In this document: positions 1 to 13,971 of the stretch, piece after piece | Layout: each line of letters starts with the position of its first letter | Numbering within the stretch: the stretch's first letter is position 1 | NCBI GenBank assembly: GCA_963996245.1 | Contig: CAXEIY010000203.1 | Location: forward strand, 174 to 64,173 | DNA: 64,000 nucleotides | Direction: 5' to 3' | From: an uncultured Planctomycetia bacterium | GTDB taxonomy: Bacteria; Planctomycetota; Planctomycetia; CAXEIY01 | The notes under the pieces: model-generated | Seen by the model: the letters and a program-made list of their open reading frames with translations, nothing else | Database searches by the model: none | What the model was told of the DNA's origin: nothing | Made by a program: the position numbers and the translations under genes

Positions 1-636
1 GAAGTAGATCCATCCGTAAGTGACAACCACATTTCAGAAAACAATGCTTTAGTTGAAACTCTCCCAGAGAACCCCCAAGACACTGCTACAGAGACCTCTG
101 CCACTGAAAAGCAACCCGAACCACCATCAACTGGTTCACCAATCGGACTACCTTCTTTTTCGTTGGACTCATTCCTTGGAAAAACAGTCCCTGACACGCC
201 AAACAATCCCATAGCTGCCCCGCCAGTAACCTCGAATTCCGCTGCGAACATCCCAGACAACTCCCCGGTTACCGTCAACCAGAATGTCAACTCTACACAA
301 CTAACCCTTCCTGTGACCAAATTTGAATACATTGATTTTCCACTGGATTTGCTGATTGAAGAAGTCTCGCAGCTTGCAAAGATGGATATCGAATTTGATT
401 ACCCCGCCCTTTCGAGAATGCGCATTCCCTTCGACACACCCGTTACCTTACGCTTGGAAAATACCCGTCTCCAGGAAATCCTGAATGCCATTACTCATCC
501 CCTAAAACTGACTTATAAGATTACCGGAAGGAAGATTCTGATAACCGAAAACACGCAGGTCAAAGCCGCACCCACAGACGAAGCTTCTTCCCGTTCATCT
601 GAAAATATGGATTGCAACAGATCTCAAACGGAATAA
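1..636 (+). CDS. 3' portion of a larger gene entering from upstream of the window. It has a Pro/Thr/Glu/Ser-rich linker, then a ~90-aa C-terminal globular domain with a weak STN / secretin-N0-like pattern. Function unknown.
   Basis: Frame 1 is open from nt 1 to the TAA at 634-636 and has no ATG/GTG/TTG before nt 163. The track ORF 163..636 is therefore only the tail of a longer CDS. The C-terminal segment reads FEYIDFPLDLLIEEVSQLAKMDIEFDY...LRLENTRLQEILNAI. Confidence 0.6.
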   Translation, partial: EVDPSVSDNHISENNALVETLPENPQDTATETSATEKQPEPPSTGSPIGLPSFSLDSFLGKTVPDTPNNPIAAPPVTSNSAANIPDNSPVTVNQNVNSTQLTLPVTKFEYIDFPLDLLIEEVSQLAKMDIEFDYPALSRMRIPFDTPVTLRLENTRLQEILNAITHPLKLTYKITGRKILITENTQVKAAPTDEASSRSSENMDCNRSQTE

Positions 637-703
637 CATGCAATCGTAGTACTGGATGTACATCGGTGATTCCGGATTCTGTTGTGCCAAAAAGGAGCAT
701 TTG

Positions 704-1612
704 ATGCGGAGGCTAACTCGTACACTCATCTGGGTATTGTGCTTCGGCGCCCTCATTGTATCTACCCAGCTCAGCAGTTTTCTGAGTGCTGATTCCGGTG
801 ATGTCACCGAGCTTGCGCCGGGAGTCTTCTTCCGTGAACAGACGGAGGGATGTAACAACGGATGGATTGTTTTCAAGGATTATGTTCTGGTTGTCGATGC
901 CAATTTTCCCGAGCATGCGGCAAAGGTGGTGGAGGCCATCAAAAAGACCACAGACAAGCCCATCAAGTTCGTCTTTGATACCCATTATCATGGGGATCAT
1001 GCTTTCGGTAACGCGATCTATACCAATGATGGAGCGGTTGCCGTCGCCACAGAAACCTGCCTGCTTCAAATTCTGGAAAAAGGGCACCCTGCGTTTGAAG
1101 AAGGAAAAGCAACTCGAGAGGACTATCGCAAAACATATCTGGCTAATCCAACGGTTCTGTTCGACACCAAGATTGTTTTTGACGACGGCGACAAAAGGGT
1201 CGAATTGCTCTACAACGGTCATGCTCATACGGCCGGTGATGCCGTTGCTTACTTACCTAAGGAAAAAATCCTTTTCACCGGAGACTCGGTCGTTGACGGG
1301 CCGTTTAATTACACCGGAGACAGCAACACAGAAAGTTGGATCAAGGTCATCGACCGCTTGAAAAAGCTTGATGTTAATACTGTGGCACCCGGACATGGTG
1401 CGCTTTCCGGACCCGAGCTTCTTGATTTGCAGCAACGGTACTTCATCGAGCTGCGTGGGACGATTCAGAAATATATTGATAATGGAAAATCACTGGACGA
1501 GATTAAAGCCTCCATTGATCTTCCTTTTTATGAAAAATGGACAGGAGTCCCAGTCCGTGATCGAGTCGAAAACATCGAACACGTTTTTTCAGAACTGGGC
1601 GGTAGTGGATAA
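704..1612 (+). CDS. Secreted MBL-fold metallo-hydrolase (metallo-beta-lactamase superfamily)
   Basis: HxHxDH motif (THYHGDHAFGN), with later HAHTAGD and APGHG metal-ligand motifs. The ATG at 704 is preceded by aaaaggagc. The N-terminus MRRLTRTLIWVLCFGALIVS looks like a signal peptide. Confidence 0.85.
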   Translation: MRRLTRTLIWVLCFGALIVSTQLSSFLSADSGDVTELAPGVFFREQTEGCNNGWIVFKDYVLVVDANFPEHAAKVVEAIKKTTDKPIKFVFDTHYHGDHAFGNAIYTNDGAVAVATETCLLQILEKGHPAFEEGKATREDYRKTYLANPTVLFDTKIVFDDGDKRVELLYNGHAHTAGDAVAYLPKEKILFTGDSVVDGPFNYTGDSNTESWIKVIDRLKKLDVNTVAPGHGALSGPELLDLQQRYFIELRGTIQKYIDNGKSLDEIKASIDLPFYEKWTGVPVRDRVENIEHVFSELGGSG

Positions 1613-1810
1613 ACGGATGGACTATACATCTTCTAAGAAACATTTCCACAAAGGAGCCTCGCTGCACTAACTATCTGTCATGCAGGGACATACCAATCCT
1701 TTCGTGTACAGTCCCGTGCCAGCAACGTACCCCTGGCCTGACTGTACTTCTTCCAAAACCCGCGAAGTGCTTTCGATCTGGTAACGATTATTCAATTCAG
1801 GAGACTTCTC

Positions 1811-1909
1811 GGGAGTGTTTGCTGGTCTGGTGACCGCCGCGGGCTTCAAACCCGTTGCGGGATTCGAAAACGAGTTCCGGGTGGGTTCGATTCCCATACA
1901 CTCCCGCCA
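1811..1909 (+). tRNA. selC: tRNA-Sec (selenocysteine), anticodon UCA
   Basis: Hand-folded structure:
- 8-bp acceptor stem, GGGAGTGT (1811-1818) paired with ACACTCCC (1898-1905).
- Discriminator G and encoded CCA (1906-1909).
- Anticodon loop CTTCAAA (1844-1850), giving anticodon TCA.
- 9-bp variable stem (1858-1866 / 1871-1879) closed by an AAAA loop.
- 5-bp T stem with loop TTCGATT (1881-1897).
The 8/5 acceptor/T geometry and long variable arm are the bacterial tRNA-Sec hallmarks. Confidence 0.9.
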
Positions 1910-1917
1910 TTACTTTA
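1896..1917 (+). repeat. Proximal copy of the putative att core (3' end of tRNA-Sec plus 8 nt)
   Basis: ATACACTCCCGCCATTACTTTA aligns with 10155-10176 (ATACACACCCCCTTTTACCTAA). I counted 16 of 22 identical positions, in the same orientation. Confidence 0.5.
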
Positions 1918-2009
1918 CGCGGCTCTTCGCATCGGGCCGCAAGTACCGGCTTTTCACGTCCCCTGACCGGAACCCGAGGGGGTCTCTGTGGTCCAAAAGG
2001 TAACTGGAT

Positions 2010-2472
2010 GCGACTCCCAGCGTGCACCTGCTGCGCCTCATTTTGCGCCACTTGTGCGCCGCATTTTGCGCCACCTGCAATGGCTCGTTTGAAGTGATCT
2101 TCGGTCACTTGAAGATAATGCTTCCTTGCCACCGGCGGACTGTTGCCAATCCACTTGCACACGACATGAGGCGCGAACTGTTCGGATAATTCCGTCTGGC
2201 GGCTTGACCGTAAATTTTGAAATATGCGTGGCCATGGATTGAGTCCAGCACGTTTCACAATCCGAACACATTGTGTACGTAAGTTTCCTCCAGGTTTGCG
2301 ATGACGGGTGATCACGTGTGGCGTACCCGATTCCGCTTCTTCGAAAACAGTCTCTAAGAAGGGTCGCACCGAACCCGTTGACAATTCCGTGCGTATAGAC
2401 AATAATCCTGCTTCTGGAATTGGTCGGGCCGGAAAGTTTCAGCATCAACTCGCCATGCGTTTTACCCGACAT
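2010..2472 (-). pseudogene. Tyrosine recombinase (phage-integrase family) remnant. Only the C-terminal catalytic part survives, and it is frameshifted.
   Basis: - ORF 1797..2402(-) carries ...NLRTQCVRIVKRAGLNPWPRIFQNLRSSRQTELSEQFAPHVVCKWIGNSPPVARKHYLQVTEDHF. This is a catalytic R...HxxxW/GN...Y box with the Tyr in KHY.
- The preceding segment (SGKTHGE..SRSRIIV) sits in a different frame, in ORF 2038..2472(-).
- The ~200 N-terminal residues of a full integrase, including the first catalytic Arg box, are absent.
- The open frame has no stop until it has run antisense through the tRNA. Coordinates are approximate. Confidence 0.7.
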
Positions 2473-3249
2473 CTATGCACCGTCGCCATCCTGGCACTCT
2501 ATGTCGCCCAAATCGTGGGTGGACGGTCAATGCATCTGTGGCAGTGCTCTGCGGGTAGTCGTTCATGCTGCTGCGACCACAGTCATCATCACCACTCAGA
2601 AAACGCGGGTGGCGAACAGCATGAGCGGGATTCAGATGGCGGTAATAGGAAGCACGACCCATCCACATGCCGCGTTGATCAAGCTGAAATCAGTCGGAAA
2701 GCAGAAGCCAACGCCATGAACGTCGCTAGTTGGGGCAAGGCTTCAGCTTGCCTGTCAACACTGTCACTGTTGCTCCTCGCTGGTTGTTCCGCTGAAGATC
2801 CACGGATTGTAGCGCTGCGGAACCGGTTGTTGTTGTTGGCGGAGCCCGCTGCCGCGACGACGATCGCGGAAGCCAAAGCCGCCGTGATCGAGAAGCCGGA
2901 CGTGTTGTTTGTCGCGCGCGTCGCCGCGGACGAGCACGAGGCGTTCGTTCCAGGGCAGACTTCCTTTCTGGTAACCGAGATTTTGCCTGACGAGCATGGA
3001 CATGGCGGCAAAGACCACACAGACAACTGTCCTTTCTGCAAACGCAAGGCCGCGGAAGGCCCGCGGGCGGCCGTTCAGTTTCTCGATGCGGCAGGCGAAA
3101 CGCTCGACATCGACGGCCGCAAGTTGTTCTGCATCAACCCCGGCGACACAGTCGTGATTCGCGGCACTGGCGAGCTGATGCCCGACTTAGACCTGTTCGT
3201 CGTCACAGCCGACGGCATCTATGTGCGGCAGTCCGAAGTTGGGCATTGA
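2455..3249 (+). CDS. His/Cys-rich membrane-anchored segment in frame with a lipoprotein-like domain. This is either one fusion protein or two products using ATG 2455 and ATG 2716.
   Basis: - ATG at 2455: MRFTRHLCTVAILALYVAQIVGG (hydrophobic helix), then HLWQCSAGSRSCCCDHSHHHHSENAGGEQHERD.
- No stop codon occurs before the second ATG at 2716.
- The ORF upstream of 2455 overlaps the integrase remnant and is probably not coding. Confidence 0.5.
   Translation: MRFTRHLCTVAILALYVAQIVGGRSMHLWQCSAGSRSCCCDHSHHHHSENAGGEQHERDSDGGNRKHDPSTCRVDQAEISRKAEANAMNVASWGKASACLSTLSLLLLAGCSAEDPRIVALRNRLLLLAEPAAATTIAEAKAAVIEKPDVLFVARVAADEHEAFVPGQTSFLVTEILPDEHGHGGKDHTDNCPFCKRKAAEGPRAAVQFLDAAGETLDIDGRKLFCINPGDTVVIRGTGELMPDLDLFVVTADGIYVRQSEVGH
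2716..3249 (+). CDS. Lipoprotein with a His-rich/CxxC putative metal site (alternative internal start of the ORF above)
   Basis: MNVASWGKASACLSTLSLLLLAGC carries a lipobox (LLAGC). The sequence DEHGHGGKDHTDNCPFCKRK combines a His cluster with CxxC. Stop TGA at 3247-3249. Confidence 0.55.
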   Translation: MNVASWGKASACLSTLSLLLLAGCSAEDPRIVALRNRLLLLAEPAAATTIAEAKAAVIEKPDVLFVARVAADEHEAFVPGQTSFLVTEILPDEHGHGGKDHTDNCPFCKRKAAEGPRAAVQFLDAAGETLDIDGRKLFCINPGDTVVIRGTGELMPDLDLFVVTADGIYVRQSEVGH

Positions 3250-3270
3250 GGACGAGGAGGAGACTATGAA

Positions 3271-4566
3271 ATGAGTAGGAAACGAGCCGAATTCATAGCG
3301 CGTTCTTTTCGACGCTTGGCGGCGATCGGCAACCACGATTTCTGTCCATGGGCGAATCGTTACGTGTATTGGCTGAAGCAGCCGATTGGCTGGTTGGTTG
3401 TGGCAGCAGCGGCCGCGGCGTTGACCGCGTTGTTCCTCGAGCCTCAGGCATGGATCATCGTGGGGTCGCTGGTTGCCGTGATGCTTATGGGCGTCGTGTG
3501 GCCATGGGTGGCGATGCGAGGCGCGTCGGCGGAAATCAAGTTCGATTGCCGCCGCTGCCGCGAGGGAGATCGAGTGCAAGTGCGACTGGTGATCCACAAC
3601 CGCTGGCCGTGGCCTTTGTGGGGATTGGCGGTCGAGAACGGTTTCTTCTTGGAAGCAGCGGAAGTGGGAAACCGCCCCGTGGTGGCGCTGGCTCGAGTTC
3701 CCGGTTGGAGCCATTCCGAGTTTCGATTCGAATTCCAGCCTGATGTGCGTGGCGTCTACCCGCATGTGGTGCCCGAATTGGCAACTGGGTTCCCGTTCGG
3801 CATTTGGCGTGCCGCGCGGAAGATTTTGGTAGGGCGCGAGCTACTGGTCTGGCCCCGGACTACGCCGCTCACCTCGATCCCTTCGCTCGGCGGCGACATC
3901 GCCGACGTCATTGGAATGCTGTTTGACCGTCCGGGGAACGAGGGAGACGTAATCGGTGTCCGCCCGTTTCGGCACGGCGATCGGCTGCGCAGCATCCACT
4001 GGGCTCAAACGGCACGGCGCGAGATGCTGATCGTGACTGAAAGACAAGCGGCTGCACGGCGGTTGGTTGTCGTCGCGGTCGATGTAGCGGCCTTTGCGAA
4101 TAGCGAATCGCCACGCGGCGGCTCGCGCGGACAACTTGAAATGGCAATCCGCGTGGCGGCCAGCATTGCGCAGGAGTTCCACGCTCACCACGCCGAGGTG
4201 CGGTTCGTCATCGGCGACGTTGATTTGTGTTTGTCGCCCGACTCCGCTGGCCTTCGTTGCTTACTAGACTCGCTGGCCCGATTTCAATTCGAGCAGGGAG
4301 CGGTACGACCGCCACGCAGCTTCGGCCGCAAGGACTTGGCGGTGGTGTTGACGACCAGCCAACACCAGTCGGAGTGGGAGAACGGGGCGGGAACAGGGCG
4401 ATTTCTTCGACTAGTGCTGATCGAGACACCCGCTTCGAGCAACGGGAATACAGCTTCACAACTAAGTAGGCGAAACGTCTGGATCGCGCTCGACGCCGAC
4501 TCGGACTGCTCGCTGCAGCTTCGACACCAATGGGAGCGAGTCTGCCATGACGACTCCGTGGCGTAA
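3271..4566 (+). CDS. DUF58 domain protein (MoxR-associated, vWA-like), with two N-terminal TM helices
   Basis: DUF58 signature RPFRHGDRLRSIHWAQTARREMLIVTERQ. The ATG at 3271 is preceded by gaggaggag. The 3' end overlaps the next gene by 20 nt. Confidence 0.85.
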   Translation: MSRKRAEFIARSFRRLAAIGNHDFCPWANRYVYWLKQPIGWLVVAAAAAALTALFLEPQAWIIVGSLVAVMLMGVVWPWVAMRGASAEIKFDCRRCREGDRVQVRLVIHNRWPWPLWGLAVENGFFLEAAEVGNRPVVALARVPGWSHSEFRFEFQPDVRGVYPHVVPELATGFPFGIWRAARKILVGRELLVWPRTTPLTSIPSLGGDIADVIGMLFDRPGNEGDVIGVRPFRHGDRLRSIHWAQTARREMLIVTERQAAARRLVVVAVDVAAFANSESPRGGSRGQLEMAIRVAASIAQEFHAHHAEVRFVIGDVDLCLSPDSAGLRCLLDSLARFQFEQGAVRPPRSFGRKDLAVVLTTSQHQSEWENGAGTGRFLRLVLIETPASSNGNTASQLSRRNVWIALDADSDCSLQLRHQWERVCHDDSVA

Positions 4567-7084
4567 GCTTCCAGCTTGCGAAACAAACGTAGACGGAACA
4601 GCCGGCAAGCAGGATGCTCGCCCCACCTCGAGGCCGAATGGCTCTCCGCGATTCGATACATTGCTGCTGGCTCTGCTGGCAGGAGCCACTTTGACGGTCG
4701 CCCGGGCAAACGCGGCTTGGAATCCGACCCCCATGGCGATTCGCGCGGTTTGCGAGTTGCTGGTGACCGTGGCGGGTTCGCTGATCTTGCGTCGACTGGG
4801 CCATACGCTTCCGCAGGTGAAATGCTTCGTGGCGATTGCTGTCAGTGCGGTCGTCGTGTTTCCGTTCGCGATTGAGTTGGCAATGCGGCAGTTCGCCGGT
4901 GGCAGCGAGCCGTTCGAGATGTTGCAGTTGACAGCTCTGCAGTTGTCGGCCGTTGTGCTGGCCGTGTTCTCCCATGTGCCGCGACTGTCCGGCACGGCGG
5001 TGTTGCTGAGCAGCTTCTCGTTGCTGTTCGCAACGACGATAGCAAGCACTCCCACGCCCCTAACGCGTATGTTGGCAGGCGTCTATGGGGCGTTGGGGCT
5101 ATGGTGGCTGATGGGAGCCTACTGGGATCGGCTGGCGGGAACGTTCGTGGCTTCAAGGGTCGAGCGGCGGATTCCGGTGCGGGTTTCGGTAATCTGCGGG
5201 ACGGCGATGGTGTTGCTGCTGCTGGCGGCCCTGATCGGCACGACCGGCGGCGCGGCGATCGCCTTACCGGGCTTCATGCCGACATCCGGCGGCACGCGGT
5301 GGCACGATCCGCACGCCCGCTCCGGCGTGGACGACGGCGACGCGATGGTTGCCGCGAAGGAAGAGGCGATGAGTTTCGGGCCAGTCGAGAGCGATCTGTT
5401 TCTGGATTCTGACATGCCATCGCTGTACGACACGTTCAATGGCATGTACGGCGAACCGCCTAAGCCAAATAAGAAACAAGAACGCGCCATCGCGCTGGCG
5501 CCCAACGACGTGCAGGAAAACGAGCAGCAGATCGCCACGACCGAACGGAGCGGCCGCGAGTTTTCAGCCGTGCGGCGGAAAGTCGAACGCAAGCGTCAGA
5601 CGATCGACGATCGCAAAGCGGCGGCGATGCTGTACGTAGTGGGCCCCGTCCCGCTGCACTTGGCGCTCGAACGGTTCGATACTTTCGATGGTCGCGTATG
5701 GACGCACTCCGGCGAGCGCGAAGAAGAACAATCTATCCGTTTGGAGAGACAGAACGGTAAACCGTGGGCGTACTTGCTAGGCACCGATTCGTCGTCGATC
5801 CATCGCGGCATTGAGTCGCACGCGGTGAAGATCATCAACCTGAAGACGAATCGCTACCCTTCACCGCCGCAGTTGACGGCCGTTCATATCGATAAGTTGG
5901 ACCAGCCTGACTTTTTCGGCTGGACCAACGACGGCGTCGCCTGCATGCCCGTCCGCGATCACATTCCGCAGTTGACCGTCCTGCATCTCCGATCCCAGGG
6001 CGTCAATCTGCAATCACTTCGCGAAGCTGACTTCACGGCACGATTTCCTGCGGTCTCGAGCGAGCGTCAGGGCCACGAGCGCACCGCGGTTGATATACAG
6101 GCGGAATTGGTCGCGCGACACCTGCGCGTGCCGGCCACGAGCGGAGCAGTCTCGCAGATTGCTGCCGCATGGACGTGCGACATACCGCGTGGCTGGCGGC
6201 AAGTGGAATCAGTTGTTGAGCGGTTGCGATCCGATTTCACCCTCGATTCGCGGGCCGAGACGCCCGAAGATTGCCGGGACGTTGTGTCGCATTTTCTGCA
6301 AGCCCGGCGAGGTCCCGACTACTTGTTTGCCACGACCGCCGCGATTCTCCTGCGCGATTTGGGGTATCCGACACGTCTTGTCACCGGGTTCTATGCGGAC
6401 AGGAACCGTTATGACCATCGCGCCGGCCAGACCACTGTCCTGGCTGAAGATGTCCACGTCTGGGTGGAAGTCAAGATTGATGGTCGCACGTGGGTCCCCG
6501 TCGAACCGTCGCCTGGATACGAGCCGCCGCGCGAATCGCTCACTTGGCGGCAACACGTAGCTCAAGTGTGGGATTCGGTCTGTCAGTGGTTTGGGAGTCA
6601 TCTTGCGGTGCTAGCGCTAGCCCTGGCGGTCGCCGTGACAGGTTGGTTCACACGCATCCATTGGCTCGATGGCACGTTAACATTGGCCTTCCGGATTGCT
6701 GGAAGAATTGACTCACGGCGGCGGGTTTTATGGACCATGCGACTGCTGGAGTATCGAGCTTGGCTGGCGGGACACCGGCGGCCAAAGTGCAAAACCCTCT
6801 CGCACTGGCACGGAGCATTGGCGGACAGCCTGCCCGAGGCGACCGCGATGTGTTTGCAGTCCGCTTTGCGATCAGCTGAATCACTCCTCTACTACTCCTG
6901 CAACTCGCCGGCAAGCGCTACGCCGGCCCACGAAGTTCTGGCGGCTTGCGACGTCGTCGAAAAACGGGTCGGAACGCGATGCTTTCGACACGCCTTCGAC
7001 GATGGCAATTGCAGAGGAGCCCCAAGGTATACCGCTCCGTTGCTCGGCCTGGCGTCAGGACAGAAAGACACTCACTGTGAATAA
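4547..7084 (+). CDS. Multi-TM transglutaminase-like protein (DUF3488/Transglut_core architecture) with a non-canonical catalytic triad
   Basis: - The N-terminal ~250 aa are strongly hydrophobic.
- The core reads RRGPDYLFATTAAILLRDLGYPTRLVTGFY...DVHVWVEVKIDGRTWVPVEPSPGY. This matches the G-x-C-x-x-FA...R..G.P.R.V.G...H.W.E....W...DP pattern, but with Asp and Glu at the Cys and Asp positions.
- Two further TM helices follow. Confidence 0.8.
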   Translation: MTTPWRKLPACETNVDGTAGKQDARPTSRPNGSPRFDTLLLALLAGATLTVARANAAWNPTPMAIRAVCELLVTVAGSLILRRLGHTLPQVKCFVAIAVSAVVVFPFAIELAMRQFAGGSEPFEMLQLTALQLSAVVLAVFSHVPRLSGTAVLLSSFSLLFATTIASTPTPLTRMLAGVYGALGLWWLMGAYWDRLAGTFVASRVERRIPVRVSVICGTAMVLLLLAALIGTTGGAAIALPGFMPTSGGTRWHDPHARSGVDDGDAMVAAKEEAMSFGPVESDLFLDSDMPSLYDTFNGMYGEPPKPNKKQERAIALAPNDVQENEQQIATTERSGREFSAVRRKVERKRQTIDDRKAAAMLYVVGPVPLHLALERFDTFDGRVWTHSGEREEEQSIRLERQNGKPWAYLLGTDSSSIHRGIESHAVKIINLKTNRYPSPPQLTAVHIDKLDQPDFFGWTNDGVACMPVRDHIPQLTVLHLRSQGVNLQSLREADFTARFPAVSSERQGHERTAVDIQAELVARHLRVPATSGAVSQIAAAWTCDIPRGWRQVESVVERLRSDFTLDSRAETPEDCRDVVSHFLQARRGPDYLFATTAAILLRDLGYPTRLVTGFYADRNRYDHRAGQTTVLAEDVHVWVEVKIDGRTWVPVEPSPGYEPPRESLTWRQHVAQVWDSVCQWFGSHLAVLALALAVAVTGWFTRIHWLDGTLTLAFRIAGRIDSRRRVLWTMRLLEYRAWLAGHRRPKCKTLSHWHGALADSLPEATAMCLQSALRSAESLLYYSCNSPASATPAHEVLAACDVVEKRVGTRCFRHAFDDGNCRGAPRYTAPLLGLASGQKDTHCE

Positions 7085-7094
7085 CATCAACGAC

Positions 7095-8048
7095 ATGATT
7101 GAAACTTCCTCTGAGACTCAGTGCCGCCACCAATCGACCATCGATGGTCTACGGTCGGCGCTAAGCCAAGCGCTCATCGGCAAGGACGACATTGTCGAAA
7201 GCGTCCTGGCCTGCTTGCTGGCTCGCGGGCACTTGTTGTTCGACGACTTGCCGGGACTGGGAAAGACGACGTTGGCCAAGGCTGTCGCCCACGCGGTCGG
7301 GGGCCATTTCGCGCGCGTCCAATGCACACCCGACTTGCTGCCGACAGACATCACCGGCTTCAACATGTTCGACCAGAAGACACACGAGTTCGAATTTCGT
7401 CGTGGTCCGGTGTTTTCGGATGTGCTGTTGGCGGACGAGATCAATCGCGCCACGCCGCGGACCCAAAGTGCTTTGTTCGAAGCGATGGCCGAACGACAGG
7501 TGACCATCGACAACCAAACGTATCCACTCAACCAGACTTTCTTTGTGATCGCGACACAGAACCCTGTCGAAAGCCACGGCGCTTACCCCCTGCCGGAAGC
7601 GCAGCTTGACCGGTTCGCCACGAAGTTGCGGATCGGCTACCCGGATCGCCGCAGCGAGGTCGATATGCTGGCAGCGAACATCGGGTCGGCCGATGGCGTG
7701 CGGACGAAGACGGAACCCGTGATCTGCCCGAGCCAATTGTGCCAGCTTCAGGAACACGTTGCCAAGGTCACGTTTACGGAACAAGTGCTCGAGTATCTGG
7801 TCGACTTGGGCCAAGCGACGCGGGAGCACAAAGAGGTCACGCTGGGACTCAGTCCGCGCGGGTTGATTACCTGGCAGCGGATTGCGCAAGCCCGCGCTCA
7901 CTTGCGAGGCCGTGACTTTGTCACGCCCGATGACATCCAGGACGTCGCTGGCCCGGTACTTGACGTTCGATTGGCCGGCGACTTCGACGCCGTGCCGCGG
8001 ATTGTCGAAGAAATCCTGGCCGCCGTCGAGGTACCCACGTTTCGCTGA
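7095..8048 (+). CDS. MoxR-family AAA+ ATPase
   Basis: IGKDDIVESVLACLLARGHLLFDDLPGLGKTTLAKAV (Walker A), VLLADEINRATPRTQSALFEAMAE (Walker B/sensor) and FVIATQNP. The ATG at 7095 lies 10 nt after the previous stop. The long upstream part of track ORF 6696..8048 overlaps the TGase gene and is not used. Confidence 0.9.
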   Translation: MIETSSETQCRHQSTIDGLRSALSQALIGKDDIVESVLACLLARGHLLFDDLPGLGKTTLAKAVAHAVGGHFARVQCTPDLLPTDITGFNMFDQKTHEFEFRRGPVFSDVLLADEINRATPRTQSALFEAMAERQVTIDNQTYPLNQTFFVIATQNPVESHGAYPLPEAQLDRFATKLRIGYPDRRSEVDMLAANIGSADGVRTKTEPVICPSQLCQLQEHVAKVTFTEQVLEYLVDLGQATREHKEVTLGLSPRGLITWQRIAQARAHLRGRDFVTPDDIQDVAGPVLDVRLAGDFDAVPRIVEEILAAVEVPTFR

Positions 8049-8094
8049 GTGAGTGCTTACACCGCGAGAGTTTACCTTTAGCAAAGATTTCAAT

Positions 8095-8583
8095 ATGAAC
8101 CGACAGCAACCAAAGATTGCGACCGTTGCAACGCGGCTTCTGCTGACGTGGCTCCTGATGGTGTTTGCCGGATGTCACGACGTCCAGACAGAAGAGACCG
8201 AGTATCATACGCCCGAACACATGCCAGCCGACTATCCAGCGGCCGTGGAGCAGTTGTTGGCGTTGCACGTCGAGATTGCCAACGGCGGTTCACGCGCGGG
8301 GGACGCCATCGACGTGTTTGCCGAAACCTATGACGTTGTGCGTTGGCTGCCAATGTTGGCCGCCGACAGCGATCTAGACGAAGAACCGTGGAATCGCGTC
8401 GACCGCGCCTCGCGCCGGCTGGAGGAAATCCTGAACGAAGTCCTTGCACGCAACGGCAGCGACCGGCGCGAGACGTATTTGCGATACGAGACGGAACTCG
8501 ACCAGCACCAGCGCGTGTTGGTCGAAATCAAACAGCAATTCCCAGCCGCCGCCAGCGCCATGCCAGCGGAGGAACCGAAATGA
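8095..8583 (+). CDS. Small helical lipoprotein, function unknown
   Basis: MNRQQPKIATVATRLLLTWLLMVFAGC carries a lipobox (VFAGC). A His/Glu-rich segment (TEYHTPEHMP) and predicted helical repeats follow. Tightly linked to its neighbours. Confidence 0.65.
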   Translation: MNRQQPKIATVATRLLLTWLLMVFAGCHDVQTEETEYHTPEHMPADYPAAVEQLLALHVEIANGGSRAGDAIDVFAETYDVVRWLPMLAADSDLDEEPWNRVDRASRRLEEILNEVLARNGSDRRETYLRYETELDQHQRVLVEIKQQFPAAASAMPAEEPK

Positions 8584-8593
8584 GGAGTCACCT

Positions 8594-10123
8594 ATGGACA
8601 GTCTGTTGTGGGGAGCTGTGCTCCGTTTTGCGCAGGCCCTTGTACAAGCAACGCCGACGATCCTGATTGGGTTAATCGTCGCGGGTGTCTTTCGTCAATT
8701 GTTGGGACATTCGGGAACGCGACGGTTGTTCGGCGACAACACATGGCGCTCACTGCCGCAGGCATGGGCGGTCGGTATGTTGCTGCCCGTCTGTTCGCTG
8801 GGAGTGATTCCCGTGTTGCGCGAAATGCGGCGCGCCGGGGTTTCCGGCGGCGCGATTCTGGCCTTCGGTTTGACGGCGCCGTTGTTCAACCCGATCTCGG
8901 TCCTGTACGGGCTGACGCTCGCCGACCCGATTGTGATAATCACGTTTTCGTTTTGTTCGCTGGTGATCGTGACGGTCGTGGGGATTGGCTGGGACATGCT
9001 GTTTCCGGGAACGGCGAACGCCGAGCCGGAACCGCCCGTGGTCGGATTCGGCGCAAAGCGGATGTTGTCAGTCACAGTGTTCAGTGCGCGGGAGTTGGCC
9101 GGGCCGAGCAGCCTGTACATCATCGCCGGCCTGCTGGGCGTGGCCATGCTTAGTCTGTTGCTACCCGCCGGCTACCTGGAATCGGCGGCAGAGCACAACG
9201 ACCCATTTGCCCCGTTGTTTATGTCCGCTGTGGCGATTCCGGCCTATGCCACGCCGATGACGGCGATCGTCCAATTGGCTTCGATGTTCCAGCACGGCAA
9301 CTCGGTGGGCGCAGCGTTTGCGCTGTTGGCTCTGGGTGCTGGCGCAAACCTGGGACTAGTCGTCTGGATGGCTCACAACTATGGTGCAAAACGAGCCGGT
9401 GTGTGGTTCGCGCTGTTGATCGTGGTCGTCGTGGGACTGTCCTACGGCGTGGATAAGCCGCTCTATCCGCACGGCGTGGAACCGGTGGGCCACACTCATG
9501 CTTTCGACATCTATTGTGCGCCCTTTCAGCCCGGGACGAGCAACGCGATGTTGACGGCTTGGCGCACCCTTTGGGAGAAAATCGCGCCGCACGAGATCTT
9601 TGCCTTGTTCGTATTAGGGCTGCTTATGGCCGCTGGCCTCGTGCTGTCTCGCTGGGATCGAGACGGTCGAGTCGAAAAATGGCTCCAGCAGCAACCGACC
9701 GCCAAACCTCGGTTTGATGTGGTTCTGCCCGGCCCCGTGCTCGGCGTTGTAGCCCTGATGGGTCTGATCGCTTTGAGCGTGTTCGGCTGCTACGTTTATT
9801 ACCCGGCTCCAGCCGAGATTTTCGAGGAGATGCGGATCGTCAACACGGAGGTGGTGGCCTCCGCTTCATCCCAGGACTGGGATACCGCCCTGTACTGGAT
9901 TCCCATCTACGACGACTGGACTCGCAAGCTGCAAGTCAGCATGTTCTTGCGCGGGGAAGAGCTGACTCCCTACCGCCGCGCCAAAGCGACAATCCTGCGT
10001 GACAAGTTGGAACTGCTCGAACACGAAGTCGAGGATCAGGAAGTCAAAGAATCTCGAGAACTCGGAATGGCCGTCACCCGAGCCTACAGTCGCATGCGAG
10101 CCGCCTATACGATGGAAAACTGA
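8594..10123 (+). CDS. ArsP/DUF318-type predicted permease with an additional C-terminal TM helix and a ~130-aa helical domain
   Basis: - N-terminal motif FAQALVQATPTILIGLIVAGVF...LLPVCSLGVIPVLREM is typical of the 'predicted permease' family (P-x-CS-x-G-x-x-P).
- Multiple TM segments.
- The ATG at 8594 is preceded by gaggag.
- The C-terminal part (VLPGPVLGVVALMGLIALSVFGCYVYY plus the EIFEEMRIVN...LELLEHEVEDQ helical region) lies beyond the usual permease length. Confidence 0.8.
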   Translation: MDSLLWGAVLRFAQALVQATPTILIGLIVAGVFRQLLGHSGTRRLFGDNTWRSLPQAWAVGMLLPVCSLGVIPVLREMRRAGVSGGAILAFGLTAPLFNPISVLYGLTLADPIVIITFSFCSLVIVTVVGIGWDMLFPGTANAEPEPPVVGFGAKRMLSVTVFSARELAGPSSLYIIAGLLGVAMLSLLLPAGYLESAAEHNDPFAPLFMSAVAIPAYATPMTAIVQLASMFQHGNSVGAAFALLALGAGANLGLVVWMAHNYGAKRAGVWFALLIVVVVGLSYGVDKPLYPHGVEPVGHTHAFDIYCAPFQPGTSNAMLTAWRTLWEKIAPHEIFALFVLGLLMAAGLVLSRWDRDGRVEKWLQQQPTAKPRFDVVLPGPVLGVVALMGLIALSVFGCYVYYPAPAEIFEEMRIVNTEVVASASSQDWDTALYWIPIYDDWTRKLQVSMFLRGEELTPYRRAKATILRDKLELLEHEVEDQEVKESRELGMAVTRAYSRMRAAYTMEN

Positions 10124-10154
10124 TCAGATATGGCTACTCTAACTCAGAAGGTGG

Positions 10155-10176
10155 ATACACACCCCCTTTTACCTAA
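10155..10176 (+). repeat. Distal degenerate copy of the tRNA-Sec 3' end (putative displaced att remnant)
   Basis: It lies in the short non-coding gap between the last GC-rich gene (stop at 10123) and the first normal-composition gene (stop at 10183). 16 of 22 positions match 1896-1917. Confidence 0.5.
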
Positions 10177-10182
10177 TAACCG

Positions 10183-10989
10183 CTACGACGCACCTTGCAG
10201 GTGCGCCTGAATCGCCTGCTGGAGAAGTCGAATCGTTGGAGAACCACGAAAGGGAACGTCCAACCAAAGAATATCACCCTTTGAGCTGACCAGATACAGC
10301 CTCGGTACCGTTTCCGTTGCAAACTGAGAAAAATAAGAACCCTCTTCGTCCAGAAGTACCGGAAAATCCAGTTCCAGGCCACTAATGATCTCCCGCACCT
10401 TCTCAATCGGCTGTCCCCGGTTGATGGCCACGACCTGTACCTTTTCCCATTCCGAATGGACGACCTGTTGTTGCAGTGACTTAATCGCAAAAGATCCGTA
10501 CGGCGTACCTGAATCCCAGAAGAGAATAACCATCGCTGAGGAAGCAGCGCGTAAGGCATCAATGCTCTGATGCATTCCATCAAGATCCAACAACTCGGCA
10601 GACGGAATCATATCACCCGTCGTCAGTAACGTGCTCTTGGCATAGTTTCCACTTCCCAAGTCGACGACCGGCATGCTGACCGATTCTCCGGCTTCCTGAT
10701 CGGACACTTCTTCCGTAGTTTCCGATCCCGAAACCACTTCGTCAACCGGCGTTTGCTGCTCTGGTTCCACAGACTGTGGCAGGACTGGTTCTTGCGGTAT
10801 GTCCGGACTGCTGAGCTCCTCTGAGACAACAGGTTGATCCGGTACCACCTCGATTGACGGCGATGGTAATAATGGTTCGGAAACCACTTTCTCTTCGGGA
10901 ACCGGGGAAGGATCGCTACCGGCCTCTTGATCACTGCAACCAGAACTCCACACGATACCGAAGACTGAAAGACACCAGATCCATCTCAT
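10183..10989 (-). CDS. Lipoprotein with a Pro/Glu/Val-rich linker and a thioredoxin-fold (TlpA/ResA-like) domain lacking the CXXC cysteines
   Basis: MRWIWCLSVFGIVWSSGC carries a lipobox. The fold match is AMVILFWDSGTPYGSFAIKSL...VQVVAINRGQPIEKVREI...DFPVLLDEEG...VPRLYLVSSKGDILW. At the position of FW-x-x-WCxxC it reads FWDSGTPYG. The ATG at 10989 has a ggagg RBS. Confidence 0.75.
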   Translation of the reverse strand: MRWIWCLSVFGIVWSSGCSDQEAGSDPSPVPEEKVVSEPLLPSPSIEVVPDQPVVSEELSSPDIPQEPVLPQSVEPEQQTPVDEVVSGSETTEEVSDQEAGESVSMPVVDLGSGNYAKSTLLTTGDMIPSAELLDLDGMHQSIDALRAASSAMVILFWDSGTPYGSFAIKSLQQQVVHSEWEKVQVVAINRGQPIEKVREIISGLELDFPVLLDEEGSYFSQFATETVPRLYLVSSKGDILWLDVPFRGSPTIRLLQQAIQAHLQGAS

Positions 10990-11129
10990 CACTTTCCTCC
11001 TGAAACTACCAAAGGTCCCCGACAATTTTATCTCGACAGGGAAGCTGCCACAGATCTTTTCCTCCACATAAAACCAACGCTGGTACTGTGACTTTCGCAC
11101 CGGAGACTGTCAACGGTAAAACAAGTCGT

Positions 11130-12890
11130 TCATCGTAAAGCAATGCCGAGGTCACGTAGATGAGTGTCATCCACCGGTGAGGGTGCACCGTTCATCAGAT
11201 CTGCTGCGCGCTGCGTCTTGGGGAAAGCGATCACATCTCGAATATTATCCGAACCTGCAAACAACATCACCCAGCGATCCAGGCCGAGGGCAATGCCTCC
11301 ATGAGGCGGCGCTCCGTACTGCAACGCATCCAGTAAGAATCCGAACCGCGCTTGTGCGGTCTCGTGATCCATTGAAAGCAACTCAAAAACACGCTGCTGT
11401 ACCTGAGAGTCGTGAATTCTAATGCTTCCGCTTCCTGCCTCGTAACCGTTTACGACAAGATCATAAGCCTGAGCACGAACAGATCCGGGATCGGCATCCA
11501 GTTTTCCAAGATCTTCTTTTATCGGCATCGTGAAAGGATGATGCTCCGATACCCAGCGATTACCTTCCTTGTCCCACGCGAACATGGGAAAATCGGTTAC
11601 CCATAGCGGATGTATCGTATGAGGATCATACAACTCCAACTCCCGACCAAATCGATTTCGCAATTCTGCCAGAGACTGGGAGGTCACGTCGAAGGAATCT
11701 GCTACAAAAACGAGAAAGTCACCGGCAACCGCCTCCATTCGTTCCATAATCGCCTGTTGTTGATCGGATTCGAAAAATTTTGCGGTTGGCGAATCGAACT
11801 GTCCTTCCGGATTAATCCTGAACCAGACCAGTCCACGTGCTTTCCATTGACCTACCCATGCAATTAATTCATCCATTTCCTTACGGGAATAACGATCTGC
11901 GGCTCCTTTGAGACATAATCCGCAAACGTGGCCGTCCGACTGAACGGTCTTTGAAAACACACCAAAAGCGCTGTCTGCAACAAGATCACTGATTTCAACT
12001 ATTTCGAGTCCAAAACGGCAATCCGGTTTGTCCGTACCGTACCTGCGAATGGCCTCGTCATGACTCATCCGAGGCAAAGGAAGTGTGATCTCCTCATCAC
12101 GCAGGTCTTTCATCAACCGGGCTACCATTCCGTCAATCAATCCAAGGATATCGTCCTGTTCGACGAATGACATCTCGACATCGATTTGAGTGAACTCTGG
12201 TTGCCGGTCTGCACGAAGATCTTCATCCCGAAAACATCGCGCAATCTGAATATATCGATCCATCCCCCCAACCATTAATAGTTGTTTGAAAATCTGAGGG
12301 GACTGGGGAAGTGCAAAAAAGTGCCCTTTGTTGACCCGACTGGGCACCAGATAATCTCTGGCACCTTCTGGTGTACTGCGACCCAGGATCGGCGTTTCAA
12401 TGTCCAGAAAACCTTCCTCATCAAAATAATTTCGTACACTTTTTGTTAATTGATGACGCAGAACAAGGAGTTCTTGCATCTCGGTACGTCTCAGATCGAG
12501 ATACCGATAGCGCAGACGAAGGTCTTCACCTGGTAACTCTTTTGCACCAGGTTCGAAAGGAGGTGTCTTGCTAGAGGCAAGAATCTCCATATTTCGGACA
12601 TGTATTTCAATTTCCCCCGTCGCCAGCTTTGGATTAACTGTGCCCTCTGGTCGACTGGCTACCACGCCCTCAATCTGAATAACCCATTCACTGCGTAAAT
12701 GGCGAGAGGCTTCCTGAAGTTTTTCTCCACCCGAAGTATCGAATTTGACCTGGGTTACTCCATAACGATCACGGAGATCAATAAACACTAGAGATCGATG
12801 ATCCCGCCAGTGTTCCACCCATCCGCAAAGCGTTACGGTCTGGCCTATCTGTTCCTGGCGTAATTCACCACAGGTATGTGAACGGTACAA
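11130..12890 (-). CDS. aspS: Aspartate--tRNA ligase
   Basis: 586 aa. It begins [11 protein letters not shown]...[26 protein letters not shown] (OB anticodon-binding domain) and carries class II motifs [18 protein letters not shown] and [12 protein letters not shown] start with an aggag RBS. Confidence 0.95.
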
Positions 12891-12999
12891 AGATCTTTTC
12901 TCCTGAAGGACTACCGATTTCGAACTTTGGTCTTACTTAAGTATAACATGTCCGCGATTTTTTCTTAGACTGGCTTATGGATCTGCACGTCCCACCCCA

Positions 13000-13971
13000 T
13001 CATCCACTTCCTGTTATAGGTCGATTGCGCGCTGTCAGAATTACCTGTTCTGCTACTTCAGAGGGCATTTCTTCACCGGTGAGGTGGACCCTCTGGCATT
13101 CCTCAAGGCTTCGAAACCAGGTGCGCTGATGTTTGGCAAGCCGACGAGTCCGTTGTTTCAGTAACTGAACCATTTCCTCCAATTCGGCTTTTCCATCGAG
13201 AAAATCAAGGACTTCCTTGCATCCCAATGATTGTCGGGCGCCACGACTCAGAGGCCTTTCCAAACCACGCAGCCCTTCCACCTCGCGTATTAAGCCGTCA
13301 ACCAACATTTTATCGACACGTTGATTGATACGTTCACTGAGCAGCTCACGGGGTAGTGTTAGGCAAAACACCTTATTGTGTTTGGCTTTACCGGCCGTAA
13401 ACCTACTGAATTGTGTTTGATGTGCGCTGATGGGAATACCTGTTTTTTCGAATACCTCCAGTGCACGAATAATCCGTCTGATATCATTCGGGTGTAAGCG
13501 ACTAGCCGATACTGGGTCTACTTTCCGCAACGCCTCATGAACAAAATCAACCCCTTTTACTTCAGCATCCTGCTGCCATTTGGCACGAATTTCCATATCA
13601 GCAGATGGCCCTTTAAAAATGCCTCTCAAAATCGCTTTCAGATAAAGCACCGTGCCTCCCACAAAGAGGATCTTCTTTCCCCGACTAAGTATCCGATCAC
13701 AAGTATTTGCAGCAAGTGTCCGGTACTTGGCAAGACTGCATTCTTCCCATGGATCCAGCACATCAATCAGATGGTGACGAACACGACGCTGCTGTTCTGC
13801 TGATGGTTTTGCCGTACCAATGTTGAGATGCCGGTATAGCATCATGGAGTCCATCGAAACAATCTCGGCCTCCAGCCGTTCCGCCAGTTCGATACCCACT
13901 TCGGATTTACCGACTGCGGTTGGCCCGGTAAGGAACCATGCCTCGCCAAATGCCTCTGCTGTTACATGCAT
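13000..13971 (-). CDS. miaA: tRNA dimethylallyltransferase
   Basis: P-loop LTGPTAVGKSEVGIELA, DSMMLYRHLNIGTAKP and HHLIDVLDP are typical MiaA motifs. Confidence 0.95.
   Translation of the reverse strand: MHVTAEAFGEAWFLTGPTAVGKSEVGIELAERLEAEIVSMDSMMLYRHLNIGTAKPSAEQQRRVRHHLIDVLDPWEECSLAKYRTLAANTCDRILSRGKKILFVGGTVLYLKAILRGIFKGPSADMEIRAKWQQDAEVKGVDFVHEALRKVDPVSASRLHPNDIRRIIRALEVFEKTGIPISAHQTQFSRFTAGKAKHNKVFCLTLPRELLSERINQRVDKMLVDGLIREVEGLRGLERPLSRGARQSLGCKEVLDFLDGKAELEEMVQLLKQRTRRLAKHQRTWFRSLEECQRVHLTGEEMPSEVAEQVILTARNRPITGSG

Follow-up and report, generated by a model that had tools for sequence, protein, structure and literature searches.

A decayed genomic island of probable Pirellulales-type origin next to the tRNA-Sec gene of an uncultured oceanic Planctomycetaceae bacterium

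Downstream of the selenocysteine tRNA gene (tRNA-Sec) of an uncultured oceanic member of the Planctomycetaceae lies a stretch of DNA much richer in G+C than its surroundings, and the question raised by this locus is where the stretch came from and how it arrived there. It was studied in a window of 64,000 nt (the whole stretch of DNA analysed), with coordinates given on the forward strand and position 1 as the first letter of the window. The compositionally foreign stretch comprises positions 1977-10122 (8,146 nt) and represents a decayed genomic island at the tRNA-Sec 3' end. Its six cargo genes, all on the plus strand, code for a lipoprotein, a DUF58 protein, a transglutaminase-like protein, a MoxR-type ATPase, a second lipoprotein, and a permease. 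The first-pass annotation, made from the sequence of the window, had already read the segment as a foreign island, and this reading is supported overall, with two errors: there is no right attachment site (attR) at the far edge, and the step in composition lies at about 2369 and not at the CCA end of the tRNA.

The sliding profile gives a G+C content of 0.599 for positions 1910-10176 and 0.482 for the remaining window, and none of 456 tiles of 8.3 kb placed outside the segment exceeds 0.490. In 1-kb tiles, values are at least 0.589 throughout inside and at most 0.526 throughout outside. G+C content at third codon positions (GC3) is 0.69-0.74 in the six cargo genes, and 0.46±0.03 with a maximum of 0.55 in 34 long open reading frames (ORFs) elsewhere in the window. 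Measured against the window background with strands symmetrised, the tetranucleotide distance amounts to 55-63 inside versus 15.1±1.3 outside, i.e., about four times larger, and the observed/expected ratio of CpG is about 1.3 versus about 1.0. The compositional anomaly is far beyond chance, and the profiles of GC, GC3, and k-mers, proposed by the first-pass annotation as a check on the deviant GC and CpG that it had noticed, deviate strongly. Long antisense ORFs, described there as restricted to the segment, were indeed found only in the GC-rich stretch, e.g., at 7161-8093(-), with 310 aa. The change of composition had been placed directly after the CCA; positions 1910-1976 are, however, common to an island-free sister lineage, the integrase remnant at about 1992-2369 has a host-like GC3 of 0.51, and the donor-derived GC-rich DNA starts at about 2369. 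On the other side, the reversal had been expected inside the 60-nt gap after 10123, and homology with the sister lineage restarts at 10123.

No empty site was identified among species-representative genomes, the nearest of which are too distant and show neither a nearby tRNA-Sec nor synteny with the flanks. Metagenomes were scanned with the fast-evolving TlpA-like protein encoded to the right of the island, and an 88%-identical variant led, through its 90%-identity cluster, to longer contigs. Two of them, L225 (17 kb) and L226, are independent metagenomic contigs of one sister lineage and align to window positions 1-1976 and from 10123 onward with 89-92.5% nucleotide (nt) identity (about 91%). 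They have 887 nt of host-like G+C content where the window has 8,146 nt, and nothing in them matches 1977-10122. Their gene order is metallo-beta-lactamase-fold (MBL) gene, tRNA-Sec, the 887 nt, TlpA-like gene, and aspS, which is close to the empty arrangement that the first-pass annotation had proposed to look for. The 887-nt interval encodes one membrane protein of 130-190 aa.

Homology to the window in blastn starts exactly at 10123 in six contigs (L222, L224, L225, L226, L227, and L228). Positions 10123..10142(+) hold both the right junction and the remnant of the host membrane-protein gene, of which the last 5-6 codons and the stop are left: QIWLL* at 10125-10142 corresponds to YQMWLL* at the end of the intact sister ORF. 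Because the window has kept only a 3' stub of this gene and the sister has it whole, the state in the window is derived, with 8,146 nt having replaced 887 nt. The right junction is best interpreted as an illegitimate deletion junction truncating a host gene. At the left, island-specific sequence begins at 1977, after tRNA-Sec (1811-1909).

The flanks belong to the host. The MBL gene (704-1612) is at the left, and the gene for a TlpA/AhpC-like thiol-disulfide oxidoreductase (10183..10989, minus strand, PF00578) is at the right together with aspS and miaA. The TlpA-like gene was considered as a part of the island because of its GC3 of 0.54, the highest outside, and rejected; its product has a counterpart with 88% aa identity beside the empty site of the sister, and no homologue in the donor loci. 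The best matches of the aspartyl-tRNA synthetase (AspRS) in species-representative genomes are titled Planctomycetaceae, Schlesneria, or Fuerstiella, and the MBL-fold protein reaches at most 56-59% there.

The higher-GC planctomycete donor lineage to be looked for according to the first-pass annotation can be named as Pirellulales/Pirellulaceae. A search with the back-translated transglutaminase-like protein yielded 28 loci, whose titles name, with few exceptions, Pirellulales, Pirellulaceae, Pirellula, or Bythopirellula, and several of them keep the full order of lipoprotein, DUF58, transglutaminase, MoxR, lipoprotein, and permease. The closest loci (L173, L175, L176, L179, and L180) have a G+C content of 0.56-0.62 and nt identity of 72-85%. 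Protein identity to these five is 84-90% for MoxR and 70-81% for DUF58, and it is 54-76% for the transglutaminase in the closest donor-like loci. The permease is 80-83% identical in L173, L176, and L179, the second lipoprotein, at the same position, 57-72% in L173, L175, L176, and L179, and the first lipoprotein 57-64% in L174, L176, and L178. The best non-self match of the transglutaminase-like protein among 5.8 billion proteins is 76%. In a neighbour-joining tree, it is nested within the Pirellulaceae clade, and the orthologues from Symmachiella/Planctomycetaceae (47-50% identity) stand separately. The flanking AspRS is at most 64% identical to anything and about 53% to Pirellulales. Cargo and host phylogenies are therefore incongruent, with the cargo proteins 54-90% identical to those of Pirellulales/Pirellulaceae. 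Homology with L173 and L176 starts near 2369 and includes a predicted promoter (2378-2406) and a small His/Cys-rich ORF, so the left junction of the cargo abuts the truncated integrase. No integrase or tRNA was identified near the cluster in the closest relatives, where it is chromosomal. All this makes horizontal acquisition at the tRNA-Sec locus from a Pirellulales-type donor highly probable.

How the cargo entered is a question of the elements next to the tRNA. A tyrosine-integrase remnant is coded at 1992..2369(-) within the ORF 1797-2402(-), the tail of which runs antisense through tRNA-Sec. The first-pass annotation had recognised an integrase remnant against the tRNA, and it can be defined as about the last 125 residues, within the catalytic domain, of a tyrosine integrase of about 435 residues. 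It retains the motifs xNLR, W-I-G-N, and KHY(Tyr) and is not functional, because box I Arg and the N-terminal domains (about 310 residues in the alignment) are gone. The upstream remainder of the integrase was not found in any frame by tblastn. Pfam, NCBIfam, and PHROGs did not recognise the fragment (the PHROGs match was insignificant and to a family of unknown function), and phage records gave no match. It has 110 homologues, many of them with PF00589 or named integrase, and an exhaustive profile search gave 9,612 relatives, the full-length members of which have about 430-450 aa and match at residues of about 235-430. The tails of many homologues translate tRNA T-arms ('GIEP', 'GFEP'), which is what a convergent orientation of an integrase gene and its target tRNA predicts. 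A split integrase of the SSV type, i.e., a family existing as fragments only, was also considered, as all word-index matches had at most 221 aa and many ran antisense into tRNA T-arms. It was ruled out by the members of about 430-450 aa, and the short matches are contig-end fragments and decay products.

The two closest homologues of the remnant adjoin tRNA-Sec (L232) or a 27-nt 3' fragment of tRNA-Sec (L233). The planctomycete-like contig L232 (JGI Ga0114931_10010837, positions 628-7000) has a similarly truncated integrase against tRNA-Sec, which is itself next to selB, selA, and a gene fusion with selD; the phylum thus has more than one case of a decayed integrase at tRNA-Sec. Contig L229 (ENA ERZ23492275 scaffold_188, positions 1743-6675) carries an island between tRNA-Ala and tRNA-Val, with N-terminal integrase pieces at one end and, at the other, a C-terminal piece from that family, 213 aa long, which reads into tRNA-Val; HTH_17/excisionase-like genes lie between them. 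This arrangement indicates that the integrase family targets several tRNAs and often persists as fragments.

The integration target, tRNA-Sec with anticodon TCA, is intact at 1811..1909(+) (ARAGORN; Rfam RF01852, 76.1 bits), and its sequence is identical in the sister-lineage contig L225. The attachment (att) core, here the left site (attL), is assigned to 44 nt at 1886..1929(+), i.e., the last 24 nt of tRNA-Sec and 20 nt downstream. This assignment comes from contig L228, in which an exact 44/45-nt copy of window positions 1885/6-1929 occurs without the tRNA body (L228rc 3147-3191). The copy marks the distal end of another element; the TlpA-proximal spacer follows after about 880 nt, and the genes before the copy are different and low in G+C. 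This copy is the attR of another element inserted at that site, and the core is defined by it. In L233, a 27-nt version of the core adjoins the related integrase fragment. No second 44-nt core was identified in the window by repeat search and local-alignment scans (the best match elsewhere was 15/44), and thus the flanking direct repeats attL and attR do not occur together in it; the only attR-type copy is that of the different element in L228. The degenerate copy of the tRNA 3' end that the first-pass annotation had placed at the far edge (10146-10175) was rejected: its local-alignment score of 8-10 does not exceed the 99th percentile of random window tiles, and it sits in spacer DNA that the island-free sister also has.

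Between the core and the island is a 47-nt spacer, 1930..1976(+), about 80% homologous to the island-free sister contig when compared by eye and absent from the attR flank of L228 (L228rc 3172-3200). Homology of L225rc and L226rc to the window in blastn stops at 1976. The spacer is possibly an arm remnant or a scar. At the sister site, greater divergence is seen in the first 20 nt downstream of the tRNA (L225rc 3270-3337 compared with window 1910-1976).

Inside the 3' tail of the integrase ORF, two tandem copies of the motif TGCGCC(G/T)CATTTTGCGCCAC, 23 nt apart, are found at 2032..2074(+). With up to 3 mismatches allowed, the motif has three matches in the window versus 0.00 expected, and the tandem pair has 0 and 1 mismatch. 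The third match, at 8815-8834(-) inside the permease gene, has 3 mismatches, is missing in the donors, and was treated as chance. Strains of the window species have one or two copies, owing to a 23-nt indel. The 20-nt motif TGCGCCGCATTTTGCGCCAC adjoins att cores or integrase 3' ends also in L228 (3659), L232 (943), L233 (2261, 2284, and 2517), and L229 (6481). In L228 it is 62 nt from the core, on the opposite side, and in L233 it flanks the core fragment left and right. No copy was identified in the donor or empty-site loci. The motif also encodes a conserved C-terminal peptide 'AQN.A'. By their position, the tandem motifs are candidate arm-type binding sites of the integrase.

Taken together, the most economical reading, which we favour with moderate confidence, is that the cargo entered with an integrase-bearing element that was later trimmed by deletions. 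The 7.75-kb cargo (about 2369-10122) derives from a Pirellulaceae-like genome of about 56-62% G+C, in which it forms a conserved chromosomal cluster. It would have entered in an integrative element whose tyrosine integrase of about 435 residues recombined the 44-nt core, a core that one or more other elements of the sister lineage apparently use too. Deletions, the order of which is conjectural, would then have taken the 5' two-thirds of the integrase, other genes of the element, attR, and most of the neighbouring small host membrane-protein gene, all now missing from the window. The outcome is a fixed, non-excisable island keeping its own promoter and intact reading frames. Finally, the island with its immediate flanks may have spread between strains by homologous recombination.

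Several points weigh against this course of events. There is no attR in the window and both ends of the cargo are non-att, so integrase-mediated entry of the cargo itself is presumptive. The integrase remnant has a GC3 of 0.51 and the cargo 0.70, and separate histories are thus possible. The 47 nt beyond the core are common to the window and the island-free sister site, which may consequently be a scar of an earlier element and not a virgin attB. The nearest relatives of the cargo are only 76-90% identical in protein, which means that the actual donor is not among the genomes sampled, and a mobile, integrase-bearing copy of the cluster was not found. The taxonomy of host and donor is based on titles of records of metagenome-assembled genomes and on single-gene comparisons.

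Some of the same observations can be read another way. A naked 7.75-kb Pirellulaceae fragment, arriving without any integrase, could have replaced the interior of a decayed resident element, its attR, and a part of the host gene in one event of illegitimate, or homology-facilitated illegitimate, recombination. The non-att nature of both cargo junctions (about 2369 and 10122/10123) and the GC3 gap between the integrase remnant and the cargo (0.51 and 0.69-0.74) fit such a replacement, as do the related truncated integrases that stand beside tRNA-Sec elsewhere, in unrelated contexts and without the cargo, and the chromosomal donor-like clusters with no integrase nearby. The remnant, however, is also missing in the island-free sister, so that remnant and cargo are co-distributed in the available data, and genes of mobile elements commonly have a lower G+C content than those of their host, which makes the GC3 gap not decisive. 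We regard this replacement as a live, though less probable, alternative to entry with an integrase-bearing element.

An ancestral segment lost in the sister, with its high G+C content due to gene-specific constraint, is very improbable. The empty site is known from one sister lineage only, and the 47 nt shared beyond the att core could be a deletion scar. Against this, it is the window that has only the 3' stub of a gene intact in the sister and is therefore derived; the GC3 of the cargo is 0.23-0.28 above every other gene set in the 64 kb, the similarity of the cargo proteins to Pirellulaceae far exceeds any that the flanking housekeeping protein shows, and the transglutaminase orthologues of the Planctomycetaceae are just 47-50% identical. 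The chance of a mis-assembly joining a Pirellulaceae contig into a Planctomycetaceae scaffold is negligible: the source organism is apparently known only from metagenomes and several contigs break within or beside the island, but the same junctions are seen, with 98.5-99.96% identity, in more than 20 contigs that differ in sample, assembler, and archive, and a structural variant common to several contigs, not random chimerism, accounts for the breaks at 9591. Differential loss and mis-assembly are both effectively excluded.

These contigs, found by exact-protein look-ups, are marine (Tara and other; ENA, JGI, and Logan) and match the window at 98.5-99.96%, and all of them have the island. One or both junctions are spanned by more than 20 independent assemblies, and their agreement across samples and archives rules out a chimeric assembly. 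When strain L211 was compared with L213 and with L082/L202, divergence was 0.0-0.4% per kb over about 700-13,000, except for the 23-nt motif indel, and 1-3% per kb beyond either limit. This low-divergence tract of about 12 kb holds the island, the MBL gene, the TlpA-like gene, and aspS, and it suggests a recent import or sweep by homologous recombination. At least three states of occupancy of tRNA-Sec were recorded: near-empty, a low-GC element with an exact 44-nt att copy, and the decayed GC-rich island. It can be proposed, tentatively, that the locus is a live integration hot spot in an open-ocean Planctomycetaceae population and that a Pirellulaceae-derived module recently went through a gene-specific sweep across strains. 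If so, a transferable function in the envelope or in metal handling would have been under positive selection.

The cargo is preceded by a sigma-70-like promoter predicted at 2378..2406(+) (TTGACA-17-AATAAT, 11/12), which is a pattern match from a consensus scan and points into the cargo. Its hexamers are conserved upstream in the donor-like loci L173 and L176, and the promoter appears to have come in with the cargo. The first ORF, 2455..3249(+), begins with a small His/Cys-rich hydrophobic membrane segment and continues in the same frame into a lipoprotein, whose lipobox start is at 2716; it has no Pfam match, and a homologous small His/Cys-rich ORF is present in L173 (3461-3904). It is followed by genes for a DUF58 protein of 431 aa (3271..4566, plus strand; PF01882, E=1.7e-7), a TgpA-like transglutaminase-core membrane protein of 845 aa (4547..7084, plus strand; PF01841, E=9.5e-18), and a MoxR-type AAA+ ATPase of 317 aa (7095..8048, plus strand; PF07726 AAA_3, E=8e-61, plus AAA_lid_2). 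PF07726, PF01882, and PF01841, which together define the MoxR-DUF58-transglutaminase module, are thus coded in adjacent or overlapping genes. The second lipoprotein (8095..8583, plus strand) has 162 aa, a lipobox, and no known domain. The last gene, 8594..10123(+), encodes a permease of the ArsP_1 family with 509 aa and a C-terminal extension of about 170 residues (PF03773, E=1.2e-24). It is a remote relative of the SO_0444 Cu/Zn efflux and SaoE families, with scores far below the equivalog cut-offs (75.5 versus 300 bits for NF033936 and 66.7 versus 325 bits for NF040736), and it is assigned to the ArsP_1 superfamily only.

No conjugation, virion/lysis, or excisionase genes were identified among the ORFs of 1977-10122, and no paralogues of the cargo genes elsewhere in the window. 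A plasmid or phage origin was considered and rejected, as similarity to plasmid and phage records does not go beyond a generic AAA domain. With low confidence, the cargo may be described as a MoxR/DUF58/transglutaminase envelope-maturation module coupled to a permease and possibly involved in metal handling. Near the donor-type cluster in L173 (1451-2422 and 4256-4471), there are a BlaI/CopY-like repressor paired with a BlaR1-like protein and a short fragment of a COG0523/CobW-like GTPase; these labels come from reading the translations of L173 and are not tool annotations. The His/Cys-rich ORF, the ArsP-type permease, and the BlaI/CopY-like and COG0523-like neighbours weakly hint at metal handling.

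Two further observations concern individual cargo genes. In the ENA gene calls of most contigs of the same species, the antisense 310-aa ORF 7161-8093(-) is called instead of MoxR at 7095-8048(+) (compared in L081-L085, L088-L090, L201-L204, and L211-L215). The antisense ORF has no Pfam match while MoxR has a strong one, and the call is a GC-rich shadow-ORF mis-annotation; the 317-aa MoxR is called correctly in Logan (L205, L216, and L218) and in some ENA records (L219 and L220). In practice, this means that several public gene calls choose an antisense shadow ORF over MoxR in the GC-rich insert. Four contigs from different samples (L207, L208, L209, and L221) match the window up to 9591 in the permease gene and then continue with identical unrelated sequence of about 0.52 G+C. 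This switch truncates the permease to the last 201 codons, and the tail has a 195-nt repeat that is 91% identical to one in the L228 element. A short mobile repeat probably brought about this variant, through insertion or rearrangement.

The case is a clear but conventional horizontal transfer, a textbook tRNA-linked island in an under-studied phylum, and no description of such an island in planctomycetes was found in the literature searched. An inter-order transfer from Pirellulales to Planctomycetales in the open ocean, with tRNA-Sec as a landing pad, is documented by an empty site and a named donor order. From this locus also come a defined att core (44 nt) and a candidate motif for the arm sites of a large family of planctomycete integrases. 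The MoxR-DUF58-transglutaminase-permease block is a self-contained unit that can move and be kept in a foreign genome, and so offers a useful way to approach this widespread, functionally uncharacterised module.

Islands at the tRNA-Sec gene (selC) of Enterobacteria include LEE, SHI-2, PAI-I536, SPI-3, and the retronphage phiR73. The planctomycete island has the same target gene, and the tRNA 3' end serves likewise as a recurrent landing pad for different elements. It differs in the phylum of its host and in its cargo, which is a housekeeping-like envelope module and not a set of virulence genes. The integrase fragment was not linked to the P4-like selC integrases, and Pfam and PHROGs gave no recognition. 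With LEE and SHI-2, defined by a P4-like integrase and virulence cargo, the target tRNA alone is shared, and the att core is defined here independently, from L228.

Triads of MoxR, DUF58, and transglutaminase genes are reported to form the core of the bifidobacterial PFNA cluster (PMC8430577, PMC6803598) and to occur in the neighbourhood of mycobacterial MoxR1 (PMC12067865); the triad is widespread and uncharacterised. As in those systems, an AAA_3 MoxR, a DUF58 protein, and a membrane protein with Transglut_core are encoded together in the island. As points of difference from those triads, the order in the island is DUF58, transglutaminase, MoxR, no FN3 or kinase genes are present, and two lipoproteins, the small His/Cys-rich ORF, and the ArsP_1 permease flank the module.

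Compared with tRNA-associated islands in general, the segment lacks an attR, keeps only about 125 C-terminal residues of the integrase, has a distal junction that is a deletion into a host gene, and has no excisionase, conjugation, or phage genes left. It is like them in its location at a tRNA 3' end with an att core overlapping it, in a tyrosine-recombinase gene convergent with the tRNA, in its deviant composition, in being missing from a close relative, and in the alternative elements found at the same site in the population.

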